DNA from: Candidatus Bathyarchaeota archaeon
GTDB lineage: Archaea > Thermoproteota > Bathyarchaeia > Bathyarchaeales > Bathycorpusculaceae
Length of the DNA: 64,000 nt
Direction of reading: 5' to 3'
NCBI GenBank assembly: GCA_963811105.1
Contig: CAWEPZ010000011.1
Span: 928,001-992,000 of the forward strand
Shown here: positions 40,689 to 63,685 of the stretch, piece after piece
Layout: every line of letters starts with the position of its first letter
Numbering within the stretch: position 1 is the stretch's first letter
Notes under the pieces: generated by a model
Database searches by the model: none
What the model saw: the letters and a program-made list of their open reading frames with translations, nothing else
What the model was told of the DNA's origin: nothing
Translations under genes and position numbers: made by a program

Positions 40689-41020
40689 AATAGAAAAAGC
40701 AAAAGTCAGCAACAACTCTTTTTATAATTTTCAATTTTTCAAGACAACACTTTGAGATAGCTTACGCGTGCAATAAGGTGTACGACAAAATTGTTAACAA
40801 GCACAATGCAATGCACATTGGAGGTCCCGACTTCCTGGAAAAAATCGTGTTATAATACTCGGAAAACTCGATCTTCAAAGCCTTCCAACATTTATCAATA
40901 ACGATATTCACTGCTGCCTTCTCCAACTCAATTTGGAAAGCGACGCTTAATAAACTTGATTTCGTAATCGTAACATCAGGAAAGAAATTTGCTTATAGTT
41001 TTCTGGTCATATTTTTTATT

Positions 41021-41082
41021 AAAAAAGGGAAGAACGGGTGATGTTACCGTACATCCGAGGTTCAAATTCCAGCGGCACACCA
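41021..41082 (+). repeat. Hybrid box/tRNA-3'-end site A
   Basis: aaaaaagggaagaacg-ggtgatgttacc-gtacatccga-ggttcaaattccagcggcacacca. Confidence 0.65.
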
Positions 41083-41230
41083 TGATAGTCTAAACCTCTT
41101 TATTCATAGAAAACCAAAATCGGTAAGCTCAAAAGAAAAAGAGATGGAAATGACAACATAAAAGGCGGTTGTACAGCAGCGGTTCCCATGGAACACGCTA
41201 TGAAGAAACAGAATTGTTTTTTGAAAAAAA

Positions 41231-41259
41231 TCGTTGCCAAGGGTTGTGGTTTGAACCCA
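41231..41259 (-). repeat. Degenerate tRNA T-arm/acceptor fragment without the box (site B)
   Basis: Reverse complement tgggttcaaaccacaacccttggcaacga. Confidence 0.45.
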
Positions 41260-41412
41260 ATTGAGACTGTGTGAAAAGTCTCTTTCTCTGGTAGCTATTT
41301 ACCGTTAACCTTAAATCTAGACTAGCCTTAAAGCAATTGAAAAGCTCTACTGTTATGCTTTAAGTATTTAGGAAGGAGACAAGCGTTCAAAAGAATGAGG
41401 CTCTGGGTTTTT

Positions 41413-41476
41413 TGTGAGGCTGGTGGTATTTGAACAGTCTCCGAGTGGTGACACCACCGGCGATTTTCCCTTTTTT
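41413..41476 (-). repeat. Hybrid box/tRNA-3'-end site C (inverted)
   Basis: Reverse complement aaaaaagggaaaatcgcc-ggtggtgtcacc-actcggagac-tgttcaaataccaccagcctcaca. Confidence 0.65.
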
Positions 41477-41630
41477 ACAAAAATTCTTATTTATTAAATA
41501 ATGTAATTATTGTCGAAATAAAGTAACATAGCGCGCGCACACAGAGTTTAAAATCGCGCATTACTCAGTAGATTATTTGTAGGACGCTGAACTAATCTCT
41601 TTAGAGCAAGCACACTTGCCAGCATGAGAT

Positions 41631-42566
41631 ATGAAGGAAGAATTAATGGCTGAAAAAAAGAGTTACTACGAGATACTAGGAATTCCAAAGGGCTCGTCCA
41701 AAGACGTGATAAAAGACGCCTACAGGAAACTAGCCATGCAATATCATCCTGACAGAAACAAGTCTCCGGGAGCTGAAGAGAAGTTCAAAGAGATATCTGA
41801 AGCCTATGCAGTGCTGTCGGATGATGAGAAACGAAAACAGTTTGACAATTTGGGTAGCACTGGATTTGATCAAAGATATAGTCGAGAGGACATTTTCCGA
41901 GGGGCTGACTTTGACTCGATATTTCGCGACATGGGCGTCAGCTCTGGCTTTGGAGATCTTTTTAATGTTTTCTTTGATGGTCAAGACTTTCCAGAAAGAA
42001 AAAGAACTATCCGTGGCAGAGACTTGGGCTACGAAGTTTACATAACCCTTGAGGAAGCAACACGCGGCGTTGAAAAGGAAATTGAGGTCCCAAGAATTGA
42101 GAGATCCCAAAAAGGACTTGTAAAAAGGGAGCGAAAGATTACGGTAAAAATACCAGTTGGCATATCTGAAGGATACCAGCTAAGACTTGAAGGACAAGGA
42201 GACGCAGCCCAGGACGGAGGCCCCTCAGGAGATTTATACATAATGATTCACATGATGCCTCATCAATACTTCAAAAGAGATGGCGACGATCTCGTATACA
42301 ATCTATACATTAGCATCACTCAAGCCACATTAGGCGCGGAAGTCACCATACCGGCAATCGAAGGAAAGGCTGAACTGAAAATTCATCCTGGAACACAGCC
42401 TGGACAGATTCTGAGGGTTACAGGCAGAGGCATGCCGAGAATGGGCGGATATGGCAGAGGTGATCTGCGCGTCCGCGTTAATGTGGTTGTCCCTAAAAAG
42501 ATAACTCAACGTCAAAAGACCCTTCTGGAGGAGCTTGCAAAAGAACTAGACCAAAAATCCCGTTAA
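41631..42566 (+). CDS. dnaJ: DnaJ-family chaperone lacking the zinc-finger domain (class B/CbpA-like)
   Basis: J-domain HPD motif, G/F region, CTD; no CxxCxGxG repeats. Confidence 0.85.
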   Translation: MKEELMAEKKSYYEILGIPKGSSKDVIKDAYRKLAMQYHPDRNKSPGAEEKFKEISEAYAVLSDDEKRKQFDNLGSTGFDQRYSREDIFRGADFDSIFRDMGVSSGFGDLFNVFFDGQDFPERKRTIRGRDLGYEVYITLEEATRGVEKEIEVPRIERSQKGLVKRERKITVKIPVGISEGYQLRLEGQGDAAQDGGPSGDLYIMIHMMPHQYFKRDGDDLVYNLYISITQATLGAEVTIPAIEGKAELKIHPGTQPGQILRVTGRGMPRMGGYGRGDLRVRVNVVVPKKITQRQKTLLEELAKELDQKSR

Positions 42567-42695
42567 AGGTGATTTCATTTTTACGGGTAAATTGAAACGG
42601 GGTCCCCTGTTCACCACAATTTTAGAAGCTCGCGCGAAAATTTTAGAAAAAAGGGAAAACCACAATGCTTCCTTAGCCGTGATTTCTGCGGCTCG

Positions 42696-43469
42696 CTATT
42701 TCTTTCGGAATCTCGTTACAAGCAGGGTTAAGACTAGAGCAACAGCTACCAGAGCTGAAGCAGCTTCAGTCAGTACAACTACCGTTTGATTTCCAGCATG
42801 GTTCACGCCTATGCCTACCAATGCCCAGATAATGACGAGGGCGTAGGCTGTGTCTTTTCTGGTCGCCAGCATTAGCATTGTAATTATTAGCGTCACTGCT
42901 ACGACCAAGATTGCCCACGTCGATGGGCTAATTCCGAAACCGTTCCAATTGTACGAAACCAGTGTGGCAGAGACATCTGCTATTGAGGCGACGGTGATCC
43001 AGCCGAGATAAACGCTAAATGGCAGATGCACTGCGAGTTTTTCACGCGGAATAGCATTTGACTTGCCTATTCCCAGACGCACGTAAATTGCGATCAGAGT
43101 TACGAGGAGCGCAAAGATAAGTAAGACAGAAAGGCTCAGGTATTCATATTGCCACGCGAACAGCCAAGCAATGTTTACTATGCTGCTTAAAATGAAGAGC
43201 CAGCTAATTCTGTTTAGGTATTCTTTTCCTTTTTGGCTGGGTAAGGCCTGATAGACGACGAAAATGCCAAGGAGAATATAGATGACTCCCCAGATTGCGA
43301 ATACATAGCCAGCCGGAGTTATCAGAGTGGAGTTTGCGTTGGACACGTCAGCGGTGTTTCTGCCGCCAATAATTTTTGTGCTGCCTGCCAAACTGTTCAT
43401 TATCACCGTTAAGACGAAAAACACGATGTTGGCGTATCTCAGAGCAGTAGAGTTGGTCATTGAAGCCAC
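42696..43469 (-). CDS. TspO/tryptophan-rich sensory-like membrane protein
   Basis: ITPAGYVFAIWGVIY, PFSVYLGWITVA; multi-TM. Confidence 0.75.
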   Translation of the reverse strand: MASMTNSTALRYANIVFFVLTVIMNSLAGSTKIIGGRNTADVSNANSTLITPAGYVFAIWGVIYILLGIFVVYQALPSQKGKEYLNRISWLFILSSIVNIAWLFAWQYEYLSLSVLLIFALLVTLIAIYVRLGIGKSNAIPREKLAVHLPFSVYLGWITVASIADVSATLVSYNWNGFGISPSTWAILVVAVTLIITMLMLATRKDTAYALVIIWALVGIGVNHAGNQTVVVLTEAASALVAVALVLTLLVTRFRKK

Positions 43470-43619
43470 AATGAAACCCTCTAATTTAGTTTATCAATGT
43501 TTTTTATATATAAAATAATCGACGGTTTAGAATATAGGTTCATTTATTTTTCTCATTAATTGCATATTGCCGCCAAGCTTATTAGGAAAAACTGTTTGAA
43601 TCCTCGTAGGCGTGTTTGC

Positions 43620-44111
43620 ATGAGTTCTGACCCAGAAGAAACAGAAAAGCGCCTTTCATTTGAAGATCTAAAGAAGCGAATTATAGAGTTTCTTGAAAGC
43701 ACAAACATGTGTGTTCTCGCAACGTGCAGTGATAATGTTCCAAGGGCGACCCCTATTGAGTATCACTCTGAGGGATTGACGATTTACGTTGTTGGTGAAC
43801 CCGGAACGAAGCTTAGCAACATAGCGAAGAATCCTAAGGTAAGTATTGGCGTTTTTCTAACATACGAGGGTTGGGACAGCGCAAAAGGTGCACAAATAAC
43901 GGGGCAGGCACAGATAATCCCAAGATCCAATGTACCTGAATTTAAACGGGGCTTAAAGGCTTACAAATGGGAGCGAGCTGCAAAGGAAATTGGGTTGAAG
44001 GAGTTTCCTAAAACTGTCGAATTAGTTAGAGTTGAGCCGAAGAAAATAGAGTTTGTCGATATGTCCCTAAAGAAAATCGGATTCAGCGCTCGCCAAGTGT
44101 TAGATTTATGA
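43620..44111 (+). CDS. Pyridoxamine 5'-phosphate oxidase family (FMN-binding split barrel)
   Basis: CVLATCSDNVPRATP..KLSNIAKNPKVS. Confidence 0.8.
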   Translation: MSSDPEETEKRLSFEDLKKRIIEFLESTNMCVLATCSDNVPRATPIEYHSEGLTIYVVGEPGTKLSNIAKNPKVSIGVFLTYEGWDSAKGAQITGQAQIIPRSNVPEFKRGLKAYKWERAAKEIGLKEFPKTVELVRVEPKKIEFVDMSLKKIGFSARQVLDL

Positions 44112-44177
44112 GTTAGTCAGTCTAAGTCGCTCGCCTGGAAAATTGGTTATATTAAGCAGAAATAATTCTTTAAATTT

Positions 44178-44717
44178 ATGGTACAAACCATAAAATATGA
44201 AATTATAAGGAAAATAGGCAAGGTTGAGATTCGTCGCTATCCAGAAGTTGTAATTGCTAAAGTATCTAACTACGAGTCAGACAGTTTTGGTCTCCTGTTT
44301 CGCTTCATATCCGGAGACAATAGGACCAAAGAAAAAGTGAAAATGACTGCACCAGTCGTTGAGCAAGATGCCTCACGAGAAATAAAGATGACGTCGCCAG
44401 TTTTGTCAGATTTCTCAAATGAAGGTTACATGGCTTTTGTGATGCCTTCCGAATTCAGGCTTGAAACTACCCCTTCACCCTTGGATAGCCGAGTTAAGAT
44501 AGAAAAGATACCTCAGAGAACAGTTGCTGTTCCGCGTTTCTCTGGAGGCTGGTCTGAAGACCACTTTAAAGAAAAAACGGGAGAGCTACTGCAAGAGCTA
44601 GCCAACGCAGAAGTGAAAACAAAAGGCAGCGTCTTTACAATGCTATATAACCCGCCTTTCACTCCAAGCTTTCTACGAAGAAATGAAGTCGCAGTAGATG
44701 TTGAAGCTGAAAGCTAA
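44178..44717 (+). CDS. SOUL heme-binding protein
   Basis: VEIRRYP, FGLLFRFISG, MTAPV, YNPPFTPSFLRRNEV. Confidence 0.85.
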   Translation: MVQTIKYEIIRKIGKVEIRRYPEVVIAKVSNYESDSFGLLFRFISGDNRTKEKVKMTAPVVEQDASREIKMTSPVLSDFSNEGYMAFVMPSEFRLETTPSPLDSRVKIEKIPQRTVAVPRFSGGWSEDHFKEKTGELLQELANAEVKTKGSVFTMLYNPPFTPSFLRRNEVAVDVEAES

Positions 44718-44876
44718 ATAGAAGCACGCTAGTCGCGCTTGTTTAAACCATTCTAGACCAAACAACTCTTTTCTTTTTTAATTAGAAACTGGGCTTGGAT
44801 AAAAAACATAAAAGTATTTGAGGATACTTCTGATTTGTTGATAATTGATTTTGTGGGGTGAGTGTGTTTGAGTGAG

Positions 44877-45752
44877 ATGAAAGGGAAAGTCTGCATAATA
44901 ACGGGCAGCAACTCCGGAATTGGGAAAGAAACTGCCACAAGCTTGGCTAAATTGGGTGCTCACGTTGTTATGGTTGTTCGCAATCAAGAGCGAGGCGAAA
45001 AAGCACGGTTGGAAATAGTAAAACAAACCGGAAACAACTCAATCGACCTAATGATTTGCGACTTGTCGTCCATGGATTCAATCAGGCGCTTCGCTGAGGA
45101 ATTCAAGAGGAAATACGACAGAGTCGATGTGCTGGTTAATAATGCTGGAGCTATGTTCAATAAACGAGAGGTTACACCAGAAGGCTTTGAACGGACGCTT
45201 GCCGTCAATTATTTGGGGCCTTTTCTGCTTACACATGAGTTGCTGGATTTGCTTAAATCGAGTGCTCCTTCCCGAATAATTAACGTAAGTTCCGGATTAG
45301 CCAAAGATGGTAAGGTAGATCTTGACGATCTTCAGAGTCAAAAGAACTATGCGGGAACTAAAGCTTACGCTCGCGTGCGAGCACCAGTTTACGCGAACAC
45401 TAAACTAATGTTAATGATGTTTACCTATGAACTAGCGAGGCGTCTAGAAGGTACGGGGGTCACTGCAAACGTCCTTATGCCTGGTTTTGTAGCGACTAAT
45501 CTTGGAAAAAACAGTGGTAGCCTCAGTTCATCTCTTATGTTTAAGATGGTTCGTCCAATGCAGGTAAGTCCTAGGAAGGGAGCAGAAACGTCTGTTTACT
45601 TAGCCTCTTCAAGCGAAGTAACAAACGTAACGGGCAAGTGCTTCGCTAAAATGAAGGAAACAACGACCTGTCCAGAGTCATACGATGAGAACCTACAAAA
45701 ACAGTTGTGGAACAGAACAGAAATCATGCTAGGTTTAACTGGTAAGAAGTGA
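44877..45752 (+). CDS. Short-chain dehydrogenase (retinol-DH-like SDR)
   Basis: ITGSNSGIG, NNAG, YANTK. Confidence 0.9.
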   Translation: MKGKVCIITGSNSGIGKETATSLAKLGAHVVMVVRNQERGEKARLEIVKQTGNNSIDLMICDLSSMDSIRRFAEEFKRKYDRVDVLVNNAGAMFNKREVTPEGFERTLAVNYLGPFLLTHELLDLLKSSAPSRIINVSSGLAKDGKVDLDDLQSQKNYAGTKAYARVRAPVYANTKLMLMMFTYELARRLEGTGVTANVLMPGFVATNLGKNSGSLSSSLMFKMVRPMQVSPRKGAETSVYLASSSEVTNVTGKCFAKMKETTTCPESYDENLQKQLWNRTEIMLGLTGKK

Positions 45753-45891
45753 GAGAAAACAGATACAATTTTCAGCGCCGTTGGTGTAATGAAAAAGTGA
45801 TTGATGCTTAAAGAACTAAATTTTGCCTATTGAAATCAAAAAATAATTTAGCAAATGGTTTATACTCAGAATTGTGAGTGGTGACTGAGGA

Positions 45892-46374
45892 TTGGTTGCT
45901 GTGGGCGAAGAGGCTCCGGATTTTACTTTAGAGACTGATGAGGGAAAGCAAGTTTCCTTGAAGGATTATAGGGGTAAATACGTTGTGCTTTACTTTTATC
46001 CTAAGGATGGGACGCCGGGATGTACGACTGAGGCTCTTGAGTTTAAGGATGTTGCTGAACAGTTTGCCAAAGAAGGCGCGGTTATTTTGGGCATCAGTAA
46101 GGACGACGTTAAGTCTCATCAGAAATTTAAGGACAAGCATCAACTGCCGTTCACCTTGCTTAGCGATCCTAAAGCTAAAGTGTTAAACGAATACGGGGTT
46201 TGGAAGGATAAAGTTCTTTACGGGAGAAAATTCATGGGAACCGAACGAACAACGTTTTTGATTGATGAAAAAGGAATCATAAGAAAAATATACACAAAAG
46301 TCAAGCCAGCAGGGCACGCTCAAATATGTCTATTAGATTTGACAAAAGATACCAAACTATTGTTGCCTAAATAA
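45892..46374 (+). CDS. bcp: Thioredoxin-dependent peroxiredoxin Bcp/PrxQ
   Basis: YFYPKDGTPGCTTEA, ERTTFLID. Confidence 0.9.
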   Translation: MVAVGEEAPDFTLETDEGKQVSLKDYRGKYVVLYFYPKDGTPGCTTEALEFKDVAEQFAKEGAVILGISKDDVKSHQKFKDKHQLPFTLLSDPKAKVLNEYGVWKDKVLYGRKFMGTERTTFLIDEKGIIRKIYTKVKPAGHAQICLLDLTKDTKLLLPK

Positions 46375-46546
46375 TGGCTCGGAAAAGAGGTTTTGCAGTC
46401 GCTTGGATATGGAGACGGGCCTTGCTAAGATTTTACTGGTAAAAAGGTGCTGGGATCCCCCTTTCGACGCAATGTTTATCTGAAAATGAGTGTTAATAAT
46501 AATTGGTATATCAATTACCATAAAGCCAACTAATTCTTGGGTATTC

Positions 46547-46592
46547 GGGTGATATCTCCACTTCAGAGGGGGTTCAAATCCCACCTCCTGCA
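46547..46592 (+). repeat. Hybrid box/tRNA-3'-end site D (best preserved; tRNA-Leu-like 3' end)
   Basis: g-ggtgatatctcc-acttcagaggg-ggttcaaatcccacctcctgca. Confidence 0.8.
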
Positions 46593-46636
46593 TTTTTATA
46601 AGTGAAAAGCGTGCGCTTCAAGTTAGGTGAGTGTAG

Positions 46637-46795
46637 ATGGTGACTGCTGAAATCTGTCCCTGTCCAAAAACCAAGTGTGTTCGACATGGCAAATGTGAAG
46701 AATGCACACAACATCACTCAGAAAAAGACAAACTACCCTTCTGCAAAAGAACAAAAACTTCTTTGCTTGGGTTTCTGAAAAAAACGCAATCTTAG
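46637..46795 (+). CDS. Small Cys/His-rich metal-binding protein (52 aa)
   Basis: MVTAEICPCPKTKCVRHGKCEECTQHH..LPFC; AGGTGA RBS; below the ORF-track length cutoff. Confidence 0.7.
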   Translation: MVTAEICPCPKTKCVRHGKCEECTQHHSEKDKLPFCKRTKTSLLGFLKKTQS

Positions 46796-47078
46796 AATTT
46801 GAACAGATTTCTTTGATTGGATTTTTAAAAAGAATTTAAACCAAAATCTAAACGAATATTTGTTAAACCCTCTCGTATGAATCGCACGGTAGCTTTCTTG
46901 CTTATATTTAATACAACGGAGGTATACGAAATGTCTCAAGCCAGTTAGCGCTTTGCATGGTTTGCTGAAAGCTGACAGAAAAGAGCAAGGTGCTAACAAG
47001 CGTTTTTTTATTAAGGCTTAATGAAGCGCGCTGGGTGAGCCGACAGCTATTTAACTCTATAACAAACAAGTAATCGAA

Positions 47079-47369
47079 TTGGTGAAAGAAGTGAGCAAGG
47101 TTGAGAACGAGTTAAAAGAAAAGATTGAGGAAATAATCAGGCAGAAGGCAGAATCATCTGTAACAGATGAGCTTTCAGACTCAGAACACGGGTATGTAGA
47201 TGCTCTGATATGGCTTAAAGAAGGCTCAATCCAGCTAACTAATGAAGGCATTGGAAAAGAAATTGTGGAGCGAACCTATGCGGACAAAGACTCAAGCAAA
47301 GAATACCGAGATGGCTACGACTCTGCACTTAAACTGGTATTAAAAATGCTAATTGAATTGAAAAAATAG
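47079..47369 (+). CDS. Hypothetical acidic helical protein
   Basis: 96-aa ORF with internal EHGYVDAL/EYRDGYDSAL repeat. Confidence 0.55.
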   Translation: MVKEVSKVENELKEKIEEIIRQKAESSVTDELSDSEHGYVDALIWLKEGSIQLTNEGIGKEIVERTYADKDSSKEYRDGYDSALKLVLKMLIELKK

Positions 47370-47456
47370 TATATTCTAAACGAATCACATTGAAATTTAC
47401 TAACTAAATCGCGTTCATGCCCTTATTTAAAAACTGAAGCGCCAAACTGTTTAAAC

Positions 47457-47518
47457 AAAAAAAGGGAAACGAGGGTGATATCTCCACTGAGGTGAGGGTT
47501 CAATTCGATTCCCCACCT
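47457..47518 (+). repeat. Hybrid box/tRNA-3'-end site E
   Basis: aaaaaaagggaaacgag-ggtgatatctcc-actgaggtgag-ggttcaattcgattccccacct. Confidence 0.75.
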
Positions 47519-47584
47519 AAAATGCCGGAAGGTGGACGTTCAATCCCTAACTTCAACACCCTGGTCACGCCTGCGCAGTTAGTT

Positions 47585-48121
47585 TCACCATTTTTCTCGG
47601 TGAACTATCTCTGCGATAGGCTTTCGTTTTCCTCCTCCGACCACTGTTTTTATGAGTTTGCTTCCGAGTCCCTCTTTGTCAGCCGGGTAGCCTACAGGCG
47701 TCATCGCCACGACCTTAATATTCTCTGGAATCCCCAAAGCTTTTTTGATTTTTGCTTCATCAAAGGCTCCTATCCAGCATGTTCCAAGCTCCAAATCGGT
47801 TGCAGCTAAAACCAGCTGCTGCATAGATATCCCCACGTCTACAAGGTAATAATTCATGCCATTGCGGTCGCCGGAGTCTTTGGGGTCAGCGCATGCAACT
47901 ACGATAACGGGTGCCTGTTTGAGCCAGCCGTTTAAGCTACCAGCCAACTCTTGAATTTTGGTTTTGTCTTTCACGACAATATATTTGCAGCATTGCTTGT
48001 TCGCCCACGAAGGCGCCAATCTTGCCACTTCAAGAACTTTAGAAAGCTTTTCATCTTCAACTGGCTTGTCCGCATAGCCGCGAACGCTTTTCCTTGCCAC
48101 TACAACATCCATAAACTCCAT
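47585..48121 (-). CDS. Nitroreductase family protein
   Basis: RKSVRGY, APSWANKQ, LGTCWIG, PVGYP. Confidence 0.9.
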   Translation of the reverse strand: MEFMDVVVARKSVRGYADKPVEDEKLSKVLEVARLAPSWANKQCCKYIVVKDKTKIQELAGSLNGWLKQAPVIVVACADPKDSGDRNGMNYYLVDVGISMQQLVLAATDLELGTCWIGAFDEAKIKKALGIPENIKVVAMTPVGYPADKEGLGSKLIKTVVGGGKRKPIAEIVHREKW

Positions 48122-48274
48122 AATTATCCCAAAAATCAGTTGAGAAAACCGACTTAAAAGCATTCAAAAGCTGTCGCAAAACGGGCAATACCGAGACTCA
48201 ATTTGCTATTTTTGTGAATTTTAGCCAGCATCCACTCAGCCCCTTTTTTCCTCAGATGCTTCTTATTTAAGACC

Positions 48275-48337
48275 AAAAAAGGGGAATTGTGGGAGCCATC
48301 TCCACTCATCATAGGGTTCAAGTCAACTTCCTGGCAG
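48275..48337 (+). repeat. Hybrid box/tRNA-3'-end site F
   Basis: aaaaaaggggaattgtg-ggagccatctcc-actcatcatag-ggttcaagtcaacttcctggcag. Confidence 0.7.
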
Positions 48338-48376
48338 ATTTGGCCCCGGGTGAAAAAAGACGCCACCCTAGCCGAA

Positions 48377-48763
48377 CTACCCAAGCTGAGTTAATTGTAT
48401 CAGGTTTCCGCACGTATCGTCGAACACGACAATGGTTGAGCCAGGTGTTTTGGTCGGCTCCGTCGTGAATTTCACTTCAAGCTTCTTCAATCGCTGATAC
48501 TCTTTCTCAACGTCATCAACGAAGAACATAGCGGCGGGGATTCCTTGCTTGTATATGGCTTCCTGGTATGTTTTTGCTGCAGGATTGCCGTTGGGTCCAA
48601 GTTGCAGTTGGGTGCCGTCTGGCTCTTCAGGCGAAACAACAGTTAGCCATCTGAAGTTGTATGCTGTGACATCTGCTTTCTTAACGAAGCCCAAGACCTC
48701 GGTGTAGAACTTGAGAGCCTTGTTTTGATCGTCTACAAATACAGTTGTCAGTTTGATTTTCAT
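48377..48763 (-). CDS. VOC/glyoxalase family protein
   Basis: VFVDDQNKALKFYTEVLGF..RWLTV..FDDTCGNLIQL. Confidence 0.9.
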   Translation of the reverse strand: MKIKLTTVFVDDQNKALKFYTEVLGFVKKADVTAYNFRWLTVVSPEEPDGTQLQLGPNGNPAAKTYQEAIYKQGIPAAMFFVDDVEKEYQRLKKLEVKFTTEPTKTPGSTIVVFDDTCGNLIQLTQLG

Positions 48764-48816
48764 AGGAGAACAAACACGTTTCACATTCTTAAGACGTTGT
48801 GATTACAGCGTCGCAA

Positions 48817-49242
48817 TCACATGTAACCGCAGCCGTAGCATTTGCCGTCATGCACCGAAACTACGTCGCCGCAGACTGGGCAGGTGTGCTTTTCCGCTTG
48901 CAGTCTGAGAAATTCCGCCATGCCTTTCTCTTTCAGCGTCTTCAGGTTTTCCACCATACTCATGCCGTAGCAGGTTCTGTACCTCCTATCCAGGTGAGCC
49001 AGCTTTTCGCAGGGCATCACGTCGCATTGGCTACAAGACTGGATTTCGCCATGGGTAAGCTTCTTGGTTTTGCAGCCGCGTTTGATATAGCAGTTCTTTG
49101 CTCGGGGGCGGCACCCAGCGCAGTGGGTTACTTTGTTTCTCTGCCGCAGTACCCCATGCACGTAGGCGAGGTAGGCTTTGCATACGCCGCAATTCATCCC
49201 GCAAGGCGCCACAAGTTCAGGGCTGAATGACTTCTGAGTCAT
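48817..49242 (-). CDS. DUF3795-like Cys-rich protein
   Basis: APCGMNCGVC, CAGC, CSQC..PC, C-terminal CPVC..CYGC. Confidence 0.8.
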   Translation of the reverse strand: MTQKSFSPELVAPCGMNCGVCKAYLAYVHGVLRQRNKVTHCAGCRPRAKNCYIKRGCKTKKLTHGEIQSCSQCDVMPCEKLAHLDRRYRTCYGMSMVENLKTLKEKGMAEFLRLQAEKHTCPVCGDVVSVHDGKCYGCGYM

Positions 49243-49346
49243 ACCATGTATTCTGACGGGTTTACGACTTAAGGTTTTGCCGAGCAGCATCCGTCAAAGC
49301 GTTTGCCTTTGGCTGAGTCTACGAGGATAATTCCTAATTATCCAAG

Positions 49347-49405
49347 AAAAAGGAGGAATGCAAGAGATATCGCCACTTGTCCTCGGGTACAAATCCAGTC
49401 CGCTG
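49347..49405 (+). repeat. Hybrid box/tRNA-3'-end site G (degenerate)
   Basis: aaaaaggaggaatgca-agagatatcgcc-acttgtcctcg-ggtacaaatccagtccgctg. Confidence 0.6.
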
Positions 49406-49430
49406 TTTTCTTCATTGGATTCCTTAAATA

Positions 49431-49829
49431 CTATTTCTTCGATATGAAGTGAAGAGCAAACAAGTGTCCTTGATAAGCTACTGGCACCATTATGATCGAA
49501 GCGTCAAAAGTGCTGCCTGTTTTCTTTTTTAGTTTAACATCTATCTTTGAGGCTACCAGTTTCTCCATGGCATTTCGATATGCAGAAACCACAGCTTCCT
49601 GGCTCATTTTGTCAACGCCAACCTCCAGGGGATTTTCAACTTTTGCCCATTCCTCGGGTGAACTAAAACCCTGCCACTCAGCAAACTTCTTGTTACAAAT
49701 CTTGTGGTTATCATCTAAATAGAGGTAAATTGCCTGTTCTGATGAATCAAAGATTTGCTTCAGTTGGTCATGAAATCCTTTGACGAGTTCTTCATGATGC
49801 TCCTCGGGCGTATTCGTTTTTTTCGAAAT
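49431..49829 (-). CDS. PAS-fold-like protein (132 aa) with apparent ATT start
   Basis: Manual translation ..QIFDSSEQAIYLYLDDNHKICNKKFAEWQGFSSPEEW..LFALHFISKK*; GAGGTG RBS 7 nt before ATT. Confidence 0.65.
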   Translation of the reverse strand: MSKKTNTPEEHHEELVKGFHDQLKQIFDSSEQAIYLYLDDNHKICNKKFAEWQGFSSPEEWAKVENPLEVGVDKMSQEAVVSAYRNAMEKLVASKIDVKLKKKTGSTFDASIIMVPVAYQGHLFALHFISKK

Positions 49830-49922
49830 CTGTTTTCACCTCTTACAAACCAATCTTAACTATCCTTTTTGAGAGCGTAAGGGTATAAAGTTGTGTGATT
49901 GTATAGCCGTAGTTACAAAAGG

Positions 49923-49954
49923 AAAAAGAGAATTGTGCGGGAGATATCTCCACT
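49923..49954 (+). repeat. Box-only site H (no tRNA half)
   Basis: aaaaagagaattgtgcg-ggagatatctcc-act; perfect 12-bp palindrome. Confidence 0.6.
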
Positions 49955-50040
49955 TGTGCAAGAAGAAAAGTGCTGAAGCAAATGATAAGTGCTTATAAGG
50001 ATATTTGAACCAACCTTAGAGGGAACGTGAGGTTAGGTAA

Positions 50041-50271
50041 ATGGGTGAATATTCCTCAAGTGACTCAAGTTGCTATCGAGTCAAATTCGACGGTAAAGAA
50101 TTCCTTGAAATAGTAGATATTGCGAAACCAAGGATCATCTACAGACGCAAAAACATGTACTTCTTTGCCTTTGATGGCTTTGTGATGTATTGTGGCCAAT
50201 GCGAAAGCTCGGATTTCACTGCAAGAATTATTGATGCAATTGAGTTCTCAAACTATCAATGGCAAAAATAA
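50041..50271 (+). CDS. Small hypothetical protein
   Basis: 76 aa with GAGG/AGGT RBS-like sequence upstream. Confidence 0.6.
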   Translation: MGEYSSSDSSCYRVKFDGKEFLEIVDIAKPRIIYRRKNMYFFAFDGFVMYCGQCESSDFTARIIDAIEFSNYQWQK

Positions 50272-59514: not shown

Positions 59515-59748
59515 ATGAGTGAAGAAGAAGCCACCACCATACAGCTTAAGAAATCCACAGTTAAGGAGCTGAAAAACATCAGAAGGTACCCCAGAGAAAC
59601 CTACAACGAGACCATCTCTAACCTGATAAAACTGGCAAAAGAATCCAAAACCCGAAGACAATACGACGAATTCCTCCACAAGATTCAACAATCAAAAATG
59701 AAGGAGTTGTGGGACAACACAGAAGATGAGGCTTGGGAACATGCTTAA
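59515..59748 (+). CDS. Antitoxin (RHH-like) paired with MazF
   Basis: TTIQL..ETYNETISNLI; acidic tail LWDNTEDEAW. Confidence 0.7.
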   Translation: MSEEEATTIQLKKSTVKELKNIRRYPRETYNETISNLIKLAKESKTRRQYDEFLHKIQQSKMKELWDNTEDEAWEHA

Positions 59749-60055
59749 AGCCGGAGACGTTATCGTTGCAAGCGTACAATTTACAGATACTGCTGAAGTG
59801 AAGACCCGACCGGCAGTGGTCCTGTTTGAAGAGTTAGGAAACGTTGTGATAGCAGGGATAACAAGCAATCTCAAAATGAAGGGATTACCACTATCCAAAA
59901 GTGAGGGCGCCATAAAAGACAGCGTAATAAAACTTAACTACATCTTCACCATCTCCAATGAAATGGTTTCTAAAGTCATCTTTCAATTGAGCAAAGAGAA
60001 AAAGCGTCTCATATTCGATGAGCTTGGCAAAAGGCTTGATGGCCTCAAAGCATAA
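59741..60055 (+). CDS. mazF: PemK/MazF-family toxin
   Basis: GDVI..FTD..KTRPAVVL..AGITS..DSVIKLNYIFT. Confidence 0.8.
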   Translation: MLKAGDVIVASVQFTDTAEVKTRPAVVLFEELGNVVIAGITSNLKMKGLPLSKSEGAIKDSVIKLNYIFTISNEMVSKVIFQLSKEKKRLIFDELGKRLDGLKA

Positions 60056-63286: not shown

Positions 63287-63685
63287 TTATTTCATTTCAT
63301 TTATGGAAATTGCAGCTTTGCATTTCTTGAGTAAGTCATTGTCCGCCGTAACTAATTTGAGGTTTTCTTTCTCTGCCAAATAAACGTAGGATGCATCATA
63401 GAAAGTAAGATGTCGCCCTATCGCAACCTCTAAAACGTCCGCTATTGAATCAACCTCAAATTTTTTAAGAGGAGCCAGGGCTTCAGAGAAAATCCCCGCT
63501 ATCCTCGCTGGATCTTTGAGTTTTTTCTGCTGGTTTTCCCGCCAAAGCACATTCCCAATCTCGTACTCTGTTAGGGAACTCACCGCGCATTCCTCAGCAT
63601 TGAACGGTATGCCAGAAATTAAGAGGGGGTAAAGGGCAGAGGTGTCTATGATGTACTTACATTTCGTGTCTTGTCGCTTTGACAT
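63287..63685 (-). CDS. vapC: VapC PIN-domain toxin
   Basis: IIDTSALY, YEIGNVLW, TFYDASY, LVTAD. Confidence 0.85.
   Translation of the reverse strand: MSKRQDTKCKYIIDTSALYPLLISGIPFNAEECAVSSLTEYEIGNVLWRENQQKKLKDPARIAGIFSEALAPLKKFEVDSIADVLEVAIGRHLTFYDASYVYLAEKENLKLVTADNDLLKKCKAAISINEMK

Follow-up and report, generated by a model that had tools for sequence, protein, structure and literature searches.

The question raised by this locus is why one short, constant DNA module should recur between genes and be followed, at most of its places, by a different piece of transfer RNA (tRNA) sequence. The stretch analysed, called the window throughout, is 64,000 nt of contig CAWEPZ010000011.1 from a Candidatus Bathyarchaeota archaeon (assembly GCA_963811105.1); coordinates without a contig name are positions in it, and the sequence 40800-50200 was inspected for site architecture. 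Based on the wider family to which the seven sites of the window belong, the tRNA origin of that family's variable arms and five insertions anchored at tRNA genes, the sites are probably right-hand junctions (attR-type, or internal attachment (att) junctions in a tandem array) of small elements that insert into the tRNA T-arm. A preliminary description of this DNA had proposed that one recombinase joins a constant, element-borne half-site to the T-arm of many tRNA genes and leaves scars that delimit captured genes. This mechanism is right in outline and over-specified. The genome holding the window is referred to as G000, and G001, G003, G009, G010, G032, G042 and G065 are related genomes.

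The six hybrid sites and one box-only site reported earlier were all found at their places. The order common to six sites is an A-tract with a purine run (GGGAA-like), about 5 bases, and a box of the form GGWG-N4-CWCC-ACT. Downstream of the box follow 10-11 bases, the T-loop-like GGTTCAAAT and then a variable strand. Other details of the earlier description also held: D is the sole site without the A-tract and purine run (the A-module), ACT follows the box at all sites but A, GGTTCAA begins 11 nt past the dyad, in keeping with the gap of 10-11 nt, and the distal arms differ among sites. The match claimed between the left and right arms of D (9/15 positions) is correct by an independent count and is a weak statistic. 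The sites are listed below with E-values from a family model, R1, which was built from 36 copies with all seven window sites among its seeds, so that the matches of the window sites, from 5e-8 (E) to 0.01 (A), follow by construction.

Site A, 41021..41082, plus strand: A-tract/GGGAA, degenerate box at 41037-41051, T-loop at 41061-41067, and an acceptor-like strand with a terminal CCA; the weakest member of the family (R1 E=0.01).
Site C, 41415..41478, minus strand and thus inverted relative to A: A-tract/GGGAA, box at 41458-41444 (GGTG...CACC), T-loop at 41434-41428, and a decayed acceptor strand (R1 E=1e-3).
Site D, 46546..46592, plus strand: no A-module, box at 46548-46562, 10-nt linker, T-loop at 46573-46579, and a Leu-like T-stem and acceptor strand.
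Site E, 47457..47518, plus strand: A-module, box at 47474-47488, T-loop at 47499-47505, and a decayed Cys-like arm (R1 E=5e-8), trailed by a second T-arm-like piece at ~47536-47555.
Site F, 48275..48336, plus strand: A-module, box at 48292-48306 (GGAG...CTCC), T-loop-like heptamer at 48317-48323, and an arm with a terminal CCTGGCA (R1 E=1e-6).
Site G, 49347..49405, plus strand: A-module, variant box at 49363-49377 (AGAG...CGCC), heptamer TACAAAT at 49388-49394, and a decayed arm.
Site H, 49923..49957, plus strand: A-module and box at 49940-49954, with no tRNA arm behind (R1 E=4e-7).

Enrichment of the bare box pattern in the window is mild, with 6 matches against 2.0 expected and 6 reached by 2/100 shuffles; the full architecture, unlike the bare pattern, is far beyond chance. 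A profile built from 18 genome copies, with A and G left out, gave 35 matches at E<0.01 in the genome, recovering site G (E=3e-6) and missing site A. With R1, 40 places were found at E<0.01 in the 3.49-Mb genome. The scan of related genomes (R1 at E<=0.001) revealed a dispersed family, present in 43/61 related genomes, 24/36 others of the genus and 10/12 families of the order, with 0 to 36 copies per related genome. In summary form, the family consensus is an A-tract, GGGG, nTTTGCG and then GGWGAYATCTCCACT, usually with a tRNA T-loop and 3' acceptor strand ~10 nt on; over 79 distinct sites, taken from this genome and from loci fetched from relatives, it reads A-tract, GGGG, nTTTGCG, GGTGAYATCTCCACT. 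A T-loop-like heptamer lies 8-12 nt (mostly 10) past the box in 48/79 sites, and about a quarter of the 79, mostly those with the GGAG...(CGCC) variant of the box, have no recognisable tRNA arm. The presence of the arm varies with box position 2, as 47 sites with T have an arm and 2 have none, compared with 15 and 12 for sites with A (Fisher p = 3e-5).

The copies are largely intergenic, with no open reading frame (ORF) of at least 70 aa running across 32/35 of them. Pfam scans around 30 sites of relatives gave no recurrent neighbour gene, and the genes flanking the 35 sites are convergent in 13 cases, divergent in 7 and tandem in 14, with no fixed promoter or terminator geometry. Among 25 pattern matches in viral contigs, 2 are family members (one at the extreme end of the contig of a head-tailed virus, one without an A-tract); the other 23 have no A-tract or T-arm context and were taken for chance. 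Loose pattern matches in public genome contigs were set aside, as most are unrelated and bacterial. The box was also considered as a general tRNA promoter element and rejected, since it stands upstream of 1/43 tRNA genes only, Arg(tcg). Box-only sites (GGAG...CGCC) were observed ~85-150 nt upstream of complete tRNAs, namely Arg(tcg) (G000:C10:10925-10969) and Asp (G032, L160:1526), a geometry unexplained by a simple attR model.

Judged by their sequence, the variable arms are genuine tRNA 3' ends from position ~51 on. The arm at C9:419588 matches tRNA-Cys and the arm at C13:218471 matches tRNA-Ala(cgc), both at 23/23 positions from tRNA position 51 to the discriminator, and both parent genes are intact elsewhere in G000. 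Similarly, arms in relatives match Pro(ggg) at 23/23 and Leu(cag), Leu(tag) and Arg(cct) at 22/23. When mapped to the host tRNA set, the right arms lead to several tRNAs (Cys, Ala(cgc), Ala(tgc), Pro(ggg) and Leu), neither to one alone nor to none. Within the window, the arm of site D matches tRNA-Leu(tag/cag) at 21/23, and that of site E is perhaps from Cys (19/23). The arms of A (Pro(ggg)/Arg, 17/23), C (Pro, 18/23), F (17/23) and G (16/23) stand at 16-18/23, the background that the shared T-loop alone gives. Among genomes, the tRNA arm of the D family drifts and the box is kept. Furthermore, the three inner T-stem pairs are mostly kept in the aligned sites, and the outer pairs are often unpaired (50:64 in 29/38, 49:65 in 14/38), which fits a joint at tRNA position 50/51, with positions 49-50 not coming from the tRNA.

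The origin of these hybrids is seen most clearly where they lie downstream of an intact tRNA gene. Five such loci, which come from the loci inspected and not from a systematic survey, are all co-oriented and have the same layout, wherein an intact tRNA is followed by an insertion of 0.7-16 kb that ends in the constant module, and then by a 3' fragment of the same tRNA.

G001, tRNA-Ala(tgc): 938-nt insertion, with the Ala 3' fragment behind the constant module.
G042, tRNA-Pro(ggg): insertion of ~0.7-0.8 kb containing a 146-aa zinc-ribbon ORF, with the Pro fragment behind the module.
G003, tRNA-Ala(tgc): 872 nt, with an exact 24-nt repeat (24/24); a second Ala-like site with native-like flank lies at 8.8 kb.
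G003, tRNA-Cys: 1.58 kb, with a 21/23 Cys fragment.
G000, tRNA-Ala(tgc), C11:733871: island of ~16 kb with five co-oriented sites, the last of which (749804) retains the acceptor end and is followed by the native downstream flank of the tRNA.

In 3/5 of these loci, flank like that beside the intact tRNA resumes after the fragment. Occupied and empty states can be compared at tRNA-Pro(ggg), where the flank past the G042 fragment is the one found directly after the intact tRNA in G000 (77% over 322 nt) and in G065. The integrase remnant beyond the G042 fragment is the one that directly follows tRNA-Pro(ggg) in G000, and an integrase or remnant likewise follows in G065. The loci have what marks tRNA-targeting elements, namely an intact tRNA with a cognate, co-oriented 3' repeat and, at tRNA-Pro(ggg), an occupied/empty pair with native flank. 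The direct attL/attR repeats are 20 nt long in G001 and 19 nt in G042 and start at tRNA position 50-53. The preliminary description had placed the exchange in an 8-nt spacer; in the clean insertions the repeat starts to the right of that spacer. What stands of the half-site proposal is that a constant, element-borne sequence abuts the 3' part of several tRNAs; its placement at the spacer does not. The five anchored layouts indicate that the inserted DNA terminates, on its far side, in the constant module and that the hybrid site is the joint between this module and the displaced tRNA end. The cargo ORFs of two mini-elements were considered as a common mobility protein and rejected, as they are unrelated to each other.

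These layouts suggest a mechanism in which an element would carry a copy of a tRNA 3' end that rebuilds the gene, plus one or a few cargo genes. The far end of the element would be the conserved ~45-nt arm, consisting of the A-tract, GGGG, nTTTGCG, GGWGAYATCTCCACT and ~7 variable nt. Following insertion, this arm would abut the displaced original tRNA 3' end (position ~51 to 73/76). The targets of later elements would be that same tRNA or a junction already present, older elements would be pushed outward, and the outcome would be co-oriented arrays of 0.6-5 kb units with non-cognate or decaying tRNA fragments. Internal sites with other arms may form when the recombination partner of a circular element, which carries the arm and a tRNA 3' copy of its own, is an earlier junction and not the gene. 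The exchange would presumably be made in trans by a tyrosine integrase, and the conserved arm may function as the binding region of that integrase or of an accessory factor. The array of the window may then be a displaced or secondarily seeded piece of a tRNA island.

The tRNA-Ala(tgc) island of G000 is a case of accretion at a tRNA along with partial tRNAs and broken integrases; it holds integrase remnants and five sites, all on the strand of the tRNA, with other or decayed arms at the internal sites. In G042, the mini-element sits between tRNA-Pro and the older integrase remnant. The sites of the window lie at distances of 926, 818, 1071 and 577 nt from each other, and, as had been claimed, they delimit inserted gene sets, with the following contents.

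Unit D-E, 46546..47471, plus strand: 52-aa Cys-rich ORF (46637-46795) and 96-aa ORF (47079-47369).
Nitroreductase gene, 47585-48163, minus strand: assigned by Pfam, between E and F.
Glyoxalase gene, 48377-48784, minus strand: assigned by Pfam, between F and G.
DUF3795 protein gene, 48817-49290, minus strand: assigned by Pfam, between F and G, in the same unit as the glyoxalase gene.

Site F thus stands between the nitroreductase and glyoxalase genes. The D-E unit has 94.7% identity over 938 nt to G000:C11:739236-740173, which spans two units of the tRNA-Ala(tgc) island on the same contig, and parts of it occur in at least 5 relatives in other contexts. The G-H unit holds a small ORF and is 90% identical to a G009 contig.

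Variation among strains also falls at the sites, a check that the preliminary description had named. The metagenome strain data are assembled contigs only. Eight contigs of related strains (4 in each of two runs) stop at 46546 and have A-tract modules upstream instead, two run-X5 contigs diverge at 47543, inside the second T-loop after E, and one run-X1 contig matches to 49957 and then continues into T-arm-like sequence where site H of the window has none. Synteny was tried for clean presence/absence of the window array and rejected, as the genes of this region lie at scattered places in 36/41 genomes. Two single-site loci were likewise rejected as presence/absence cases, since they gave copies of an insertion sequence (IS) or no flank match.

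The enzyme that would carry out the exchange has been sought in the window, the genome and the relatives. In agreement with the preliminary description, no recombinase or reverse transcriptase (RT) was found among the 76 ORFs of at least 52 aa scanned in the window. A genome-wide PF00589 scan gave no match within the window's range of its contig, and PF00078 (RT) gave none in the whole 96.65%-complete genome. A tyrosine integrase next to the box half, another of the checks named earlier, was absent from the arrays (window, G000 and 30 sites in relatives). No integrase was found in the scanned ORFs of the 16-kb tRNA-Ala island or in the one scanned ORF of the G001 mini-element, and in place of an integrase inside an element beside its att site, only remnants adjoin tRNAs. 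Short ORFs with a common C-terminal motif were identified as the C-termini of tyrosine integrases; they are convergent to tRNA-Pro(ggg) and tRNA-Ala(tgc), and further C-terminal remnants lie just past site 749804 and beside tRNA-Leu(tag). An intact 422-aa relative, with an N-terminal zinc ribbon according to the source names, is 99% identical to the Pro-linked remnant and belongs to a family of >3000 members. In 15/24 public loci, the 422-aa integrases are convergent with tRNA-Pro(ggg) (10) or tRNA-Leu(tag) (5). The search for an intact element with an integrase of the 422-aa type at one end and the arm at the other gave one doubtful case, in G065, whose fragment is too decayed to assign. The integrase remnants may simply stem from earlier elements at these tRNAs. 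Intact paralogues of the 422-aa family were also observed directly upstream of, and co-oriented with, tRNA-Asp (C14:13031-14236), tRNA-Gly(ccc) (C6:37310-38566) and tRNA-Ile (C8:83411-84538), in contrast to the remnants and public relatives, which are convergent to the tRNA 3' end. T-arm-like and box-like strings lie between the integrase stop and tRNA-Asp.

Several observations weigh against insertion into the tRNA T-arm as the source of the sites. The 64-kb window contains no tRNA gene and no integrase, and with no tRNA anchor within it, its sites are assigned by family membership. In the complete genome G003, 4/22 sites lie within 10 kb downstream of a co-oriented tRNA, 3 of those 4 being cognate, so that most junctions have either moved or been seeded away from tRNAs. 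No PF00589 match was found in 92 ORFs around 30 sites of relatives. The 422-aa family and the motif occur together in 33 of 61 genomes, the motif only in 10, the integrase only in 13 and neither in 5, and the family was therefore rejected as linked to the motif by co-occurrence, as there is no association. Within 6 kb, the 24 integrase loci have no good site and one degenerate site. Box-only sites without a tRNA arm include H and about 14/27 of the GGAG-type boxes. In copies with only one flank in common, homology measured from the box start begins at -2 to -5 where the right flank is shared and stops at -3 to +13 where the left flank is shared, and copies whose left flanks are ~90% identical have different 7-nt linkers; a simple exchange in the T-loop does not predict this. 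As far as these alignments can indicate, the flank breakpoints and linker differences point to an additional exchange in or close to the box, with the breakpoints placed to within ~15 nt only, because the box and A-module are alike in all copies.

Exchange at the box is kept as the main rival, or as an extra layer on insertion into the T-arm. As a rival, it takes the form of an integron-like cassette system in which the whole site (A-module, box and T-arm) recombines at or inside the box, single-gene cassettes shuffle independently of tRNA genes, and the T-arm is only ancestral. Such a system would explain why the left-flank and right-flank homology ranges overlap at the left edge of the box, and it is consistent with inter-site units of 0.6-1.6 kb that hold one or two accessory genes (nitroreductase, glyoxalase, DUF3795), with one unit found in differing contexts, with the majority of sites being distant from tRNAs and with the tracking of T-arm presence by T/A at box position 2 (47/2 vs 15/12). 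However, the conserved box and A-module let alignments run through by likeness, which limits resolution to ~15 nt, and in the five clean insertions the repeats lie within the tRNA part instead of the box. An integrase is also lacking at the arrays, genes lie on both strands and no hairpin covaries. The attC sites of integrons are imperfect inverted repeats that fold as hairpins, with cores RYYYAAC and GTTRRRY; the GTTCAAA of the sites has C where R is required and so breaks the GTTRRRY core. No IntI stands beside the array of the window or beside other G000 arrays, and in place of co-oriented cassette ORFs behind a common promoter, ORFs occur on both strands in the window and the flanks at 35 sites are mixed. 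Membership in the integrons, as proposed in the preliminary description, is not supported, and the rival as a whole is unlikely. A broader proposal has somewhat better prospects and is still doubtful: a cassette-capture system on tRNA genes in Bathyarchaeia that works like an integron, in which tiny integrase-less cassettes ending in the ~45-nt arm would rely for their movement on a host or element integrase that acts in trans and recognises the arm and the near-universal T-arm. Every tRNA gene or earlier junction could then receive an insertion, with arrays of adaptive genes building up and reshuffling.

It is quite improbable that the sites are a dispersed short repeat of ~75 nt, MITE-like (miniature inverted-repeat transposable element) or otherwise copied, with a chance tRNA piece and with mosaic flanks made by homologous recombination between copies. 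The ~40 intergenic copies per genome, their patchy distribution in relatives (0-36), the breakpoints inside the conserved part and the IS ends beside two sites are all compatible with such a repeat. A single copied repeat would, however, carry a single arm, whereas the arms here come from at least 5 tRNAs and some are exact to host genes; the anchored five, in addition, have a fragment cognate to the nearby tRNA with native flank after it. No terminal inverted repeats or target duplications were noticed at the one site read, in the course of no systematic test.

Slightly less probable again are readings in which the product is an RNA, with the sites as small tRNA-like RNA genes, or with an anti-tRNA RNA on the opposite strand that ends in a hairpin and U-tract; the A/T-rich DNA would be a promoter, the box a protein-binding hairpin and the T-arm a mimic. 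These readings would account for a constant module that is conserved across the order while the arms decay, for a fixed box-to-T-loop gap of ~10 nt, for a module length that appears to equal tRNA positions ~10-50 in our own mapping, for an anticodon-arm-like stem paired in 85% of cells and, on the minus strand, for a box followed by a C-run and T6. Yet Rfam 15 gave zero matches in the window at gathering scores, and with RF00005 no site is among the 46 matches at E<=1 in the genome. No covariation above shuffles was found for the dyad, the T-stem, the anticodon-arm-like stem or the pairing between A-module and T-loop. The covariation of the box claimed earlier does not extend to the family, as the third dyad pair is T.T in 48/77 sites, A:T in 17 and T:A in 1, which is site C; it is unpaired in 30/38 aligned sites, and shuffles give an equal result. 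Moreover, the outer pairs of the T-stem are disrupted, intact parent tRNAs exist, no RT was found and the flanking genes have no consistent promoter or terminator geometry (13/7/14). The antisense or tRNA primer-binding alternative of the preliminary description likewise found no support, with no RT in the genome, no Rfam match and no listed RNA-library contig piece on a site. Contigs of the RNA library of run X18 cover the DnaJ gene and the 96-aa ORF unit; among the listed pieces none lies on sites, and contigs of this kind cannot show small RNAs.

The pairing between the A-module and the T-arm deserves separate description. Reverse-complemented, the A-module consensus corresponds to the 3' half of the T-arm, with 74.5% of cells paired vs 36-57% when the two are slid against each other. 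The register of the A-module/T-loop pairing is sharp (300 vs <=217 in other registers), and the observed 300 compares with 296 +/- 6.5 in shuffles and is reached in 644/2000 of them, so that the match holds at the level of the consensus only. This complementarity fits inverted protein-binding arms as well as it fits pairing. The constant module was also observed to span the length of tRNA positions ~10-50, with the A-tract and GG at the places of D-loop A14 and G18-G19 and a hairpin of 5 bp and 7 nt where the anticodon arm would fall. A tRNA-like origin of the whole constant module was considered, as the lengths fit, and rejected, since neither the Rfam tRNA model nor covariation lends it support.

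Comparison with known systems places the class of mechanism, integrase insertion into a tRNA T-arm with tandem accretion, among those already well known. Integron cassettes, including those of the archaeal integrons described by Ghaly et al., are alike in their short arrays of one or two genes, their accessory or detoxification genes, the repeated sites that bound them and the lack of an internal mobility gene. The family described here differs in having no IntI/attI platform, no attC architecture, a true tRNA fragment in the site and documented insertion at tRNAs. Tyrosine integrases reportedly target tRNA genes, and Williams is said to have distinguished in 2002 a class with a T-loop sublocation. 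Islands of this T-loop class are bounded on one side by an intact tRNA and on the other by a displaced 3' fragment repeat that starts in the T-stem/T-loop, and they resemble the present family also in their accessory-gene content and in the integrase remnants beside the tRNA. Unlike these islands, the insertions here are tiny (0.7-1.6 kb in four cases) and integrase-less, share one ~45-nt arm among different tRNAs, have most of their junctions far from a tRNA and have internal junctions with non-cognate fragments. The cis-mobilizable elements (CIMEs) of Firmicutes are integrase-less and att-flanked and are presumably mobilised in trans by the integrase of a related element. They are alike in being att-flanked cargo without its own integrase and differ in domain of life and in att sequences. 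Tn7-like elements are not known to leave a copy of the tRNA end. They insert beside, not in, tRNA genes (bioRxiv 10.1101/2025.07.27.667033), and they were rejected as an explanation on this ground.

The tycheposons of Prochlorococcus undergo successive integrations at tRNAs that push older elements inward into the island (bioRxiv 10.1101/2020.12.28.424599). They also carry cargo at tRNA genes, with broken integrases and partial tRNAs scattered in the islands, which is alike (10.1101/2020.12.28.424599). Tycheposons differ in being bacterial and defined by their own integrase and replication modules, whereas the present family is archaeal, has a conserved non-coding arm and is known from sequence. 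The hallmark pair of integrase and replication module is absent here, the units carrying one or two cargo ORFs only. Split tRNA 3' halves occur in Nanoarchaeum and Caldivirga; such a half starts at a recognised split or intron position, has a specific leader that pairs with a 5' half encoded elsewhere, and replaces a full-length gene. In Caldiarchaeum, scattered tRNA fragments are tied to an integrating element (PMC3293823). Split tRNAs and the Caldiarchaeum fragments are alike in being free-standing 3' pieces of tRNA behind a non-tRNA leader. Unlike split tRNAs, the fragments here start at ~51 instead of in the anticodon region, a single leader precedes the pieces of all tRNAs, and full-length Cys, Ala and Pro genes are present. 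With full-length parent tRNAs intact, the fragments are unneeded for tRNA production. A conserved arm or integrase-less mini-cassettes common to different tRNAs in Bathyarchaeia were not found in print, supplementary tables aside, and the element family and its conserved end sequence appear to be undescribed.

If active, this family could be a main route for the exchange of single accessory genes (here redox and detoxification enzymes) in abundant uncultured archaea of soil and sediment, and one short arm together with the conserved T-arm would suffice to address many tRNA genes. The arm, as detected with R1, is a compact marker across an order for delimiting islands and mini-cassettes in Bathyarchaeia, and many orphan tRNA 3' fragments, otherwise passed over or miscalled by annotation pipelines, would find an explanation in the family. 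Should the sites be no more than old scars, they would still be markers of island history and otherwise ordinary.

The surroundings of the sites provide further observations. The DNA between A and C (window 41100-41400) corresponds to the terminal ~100-300 nt of an IS, a fuller copy of which lies at G000:C9:419000-419500, directly after the tRNA-Cys fragment site on contig C9. The fuller copy contains a transposase-like ORF of at least 137 aa, which was taken as IS1182/IS5-like by eye only, and the IS is multi-copy in relatives. The DnaJ-family unit at 41533-42594 has 95-98% identity to copies in three other species of the genus, while its neighbours have ~70-80% or no match, a pattern in sequence identity that suggests recent transfer. 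A 31-nt repeat at 46431-46461 has 4 copies in the genome and flanks the DnaJ gene on both sides in G010. Many loose contig ends lie on both sides of this repeat in three metagenomes, and in one RNA-library contig position 42566 is followed, after 11 other letters, by 46431, so that 3864 nt (five genes) are left out. This repeat looks like a second kind of recombination or boundary element.

Farther from the array, window 4500-27600 resembles a defence island, with a split UvrD-type helicase and PD-(D/E)XK nuclease, an Eco57I/MmeI-like methylase and a SNF2-family helicase, and toxin-antitoxin genes lie further on (MazF-like, 59726-60055; PIN-domain, 63287-63685). ARAGORN and Rfam found no tRNA or known RNA genes in the window. 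Elsewhere in the genome, a weak Rfam tRNA match (23.8 bits) at G000:C13:219253-219322 (L138:1354-1423) was not called by ARAGORN; it is ~91% conserved in five relatives, and the tRNA it represents may be unusual or contain an intron.

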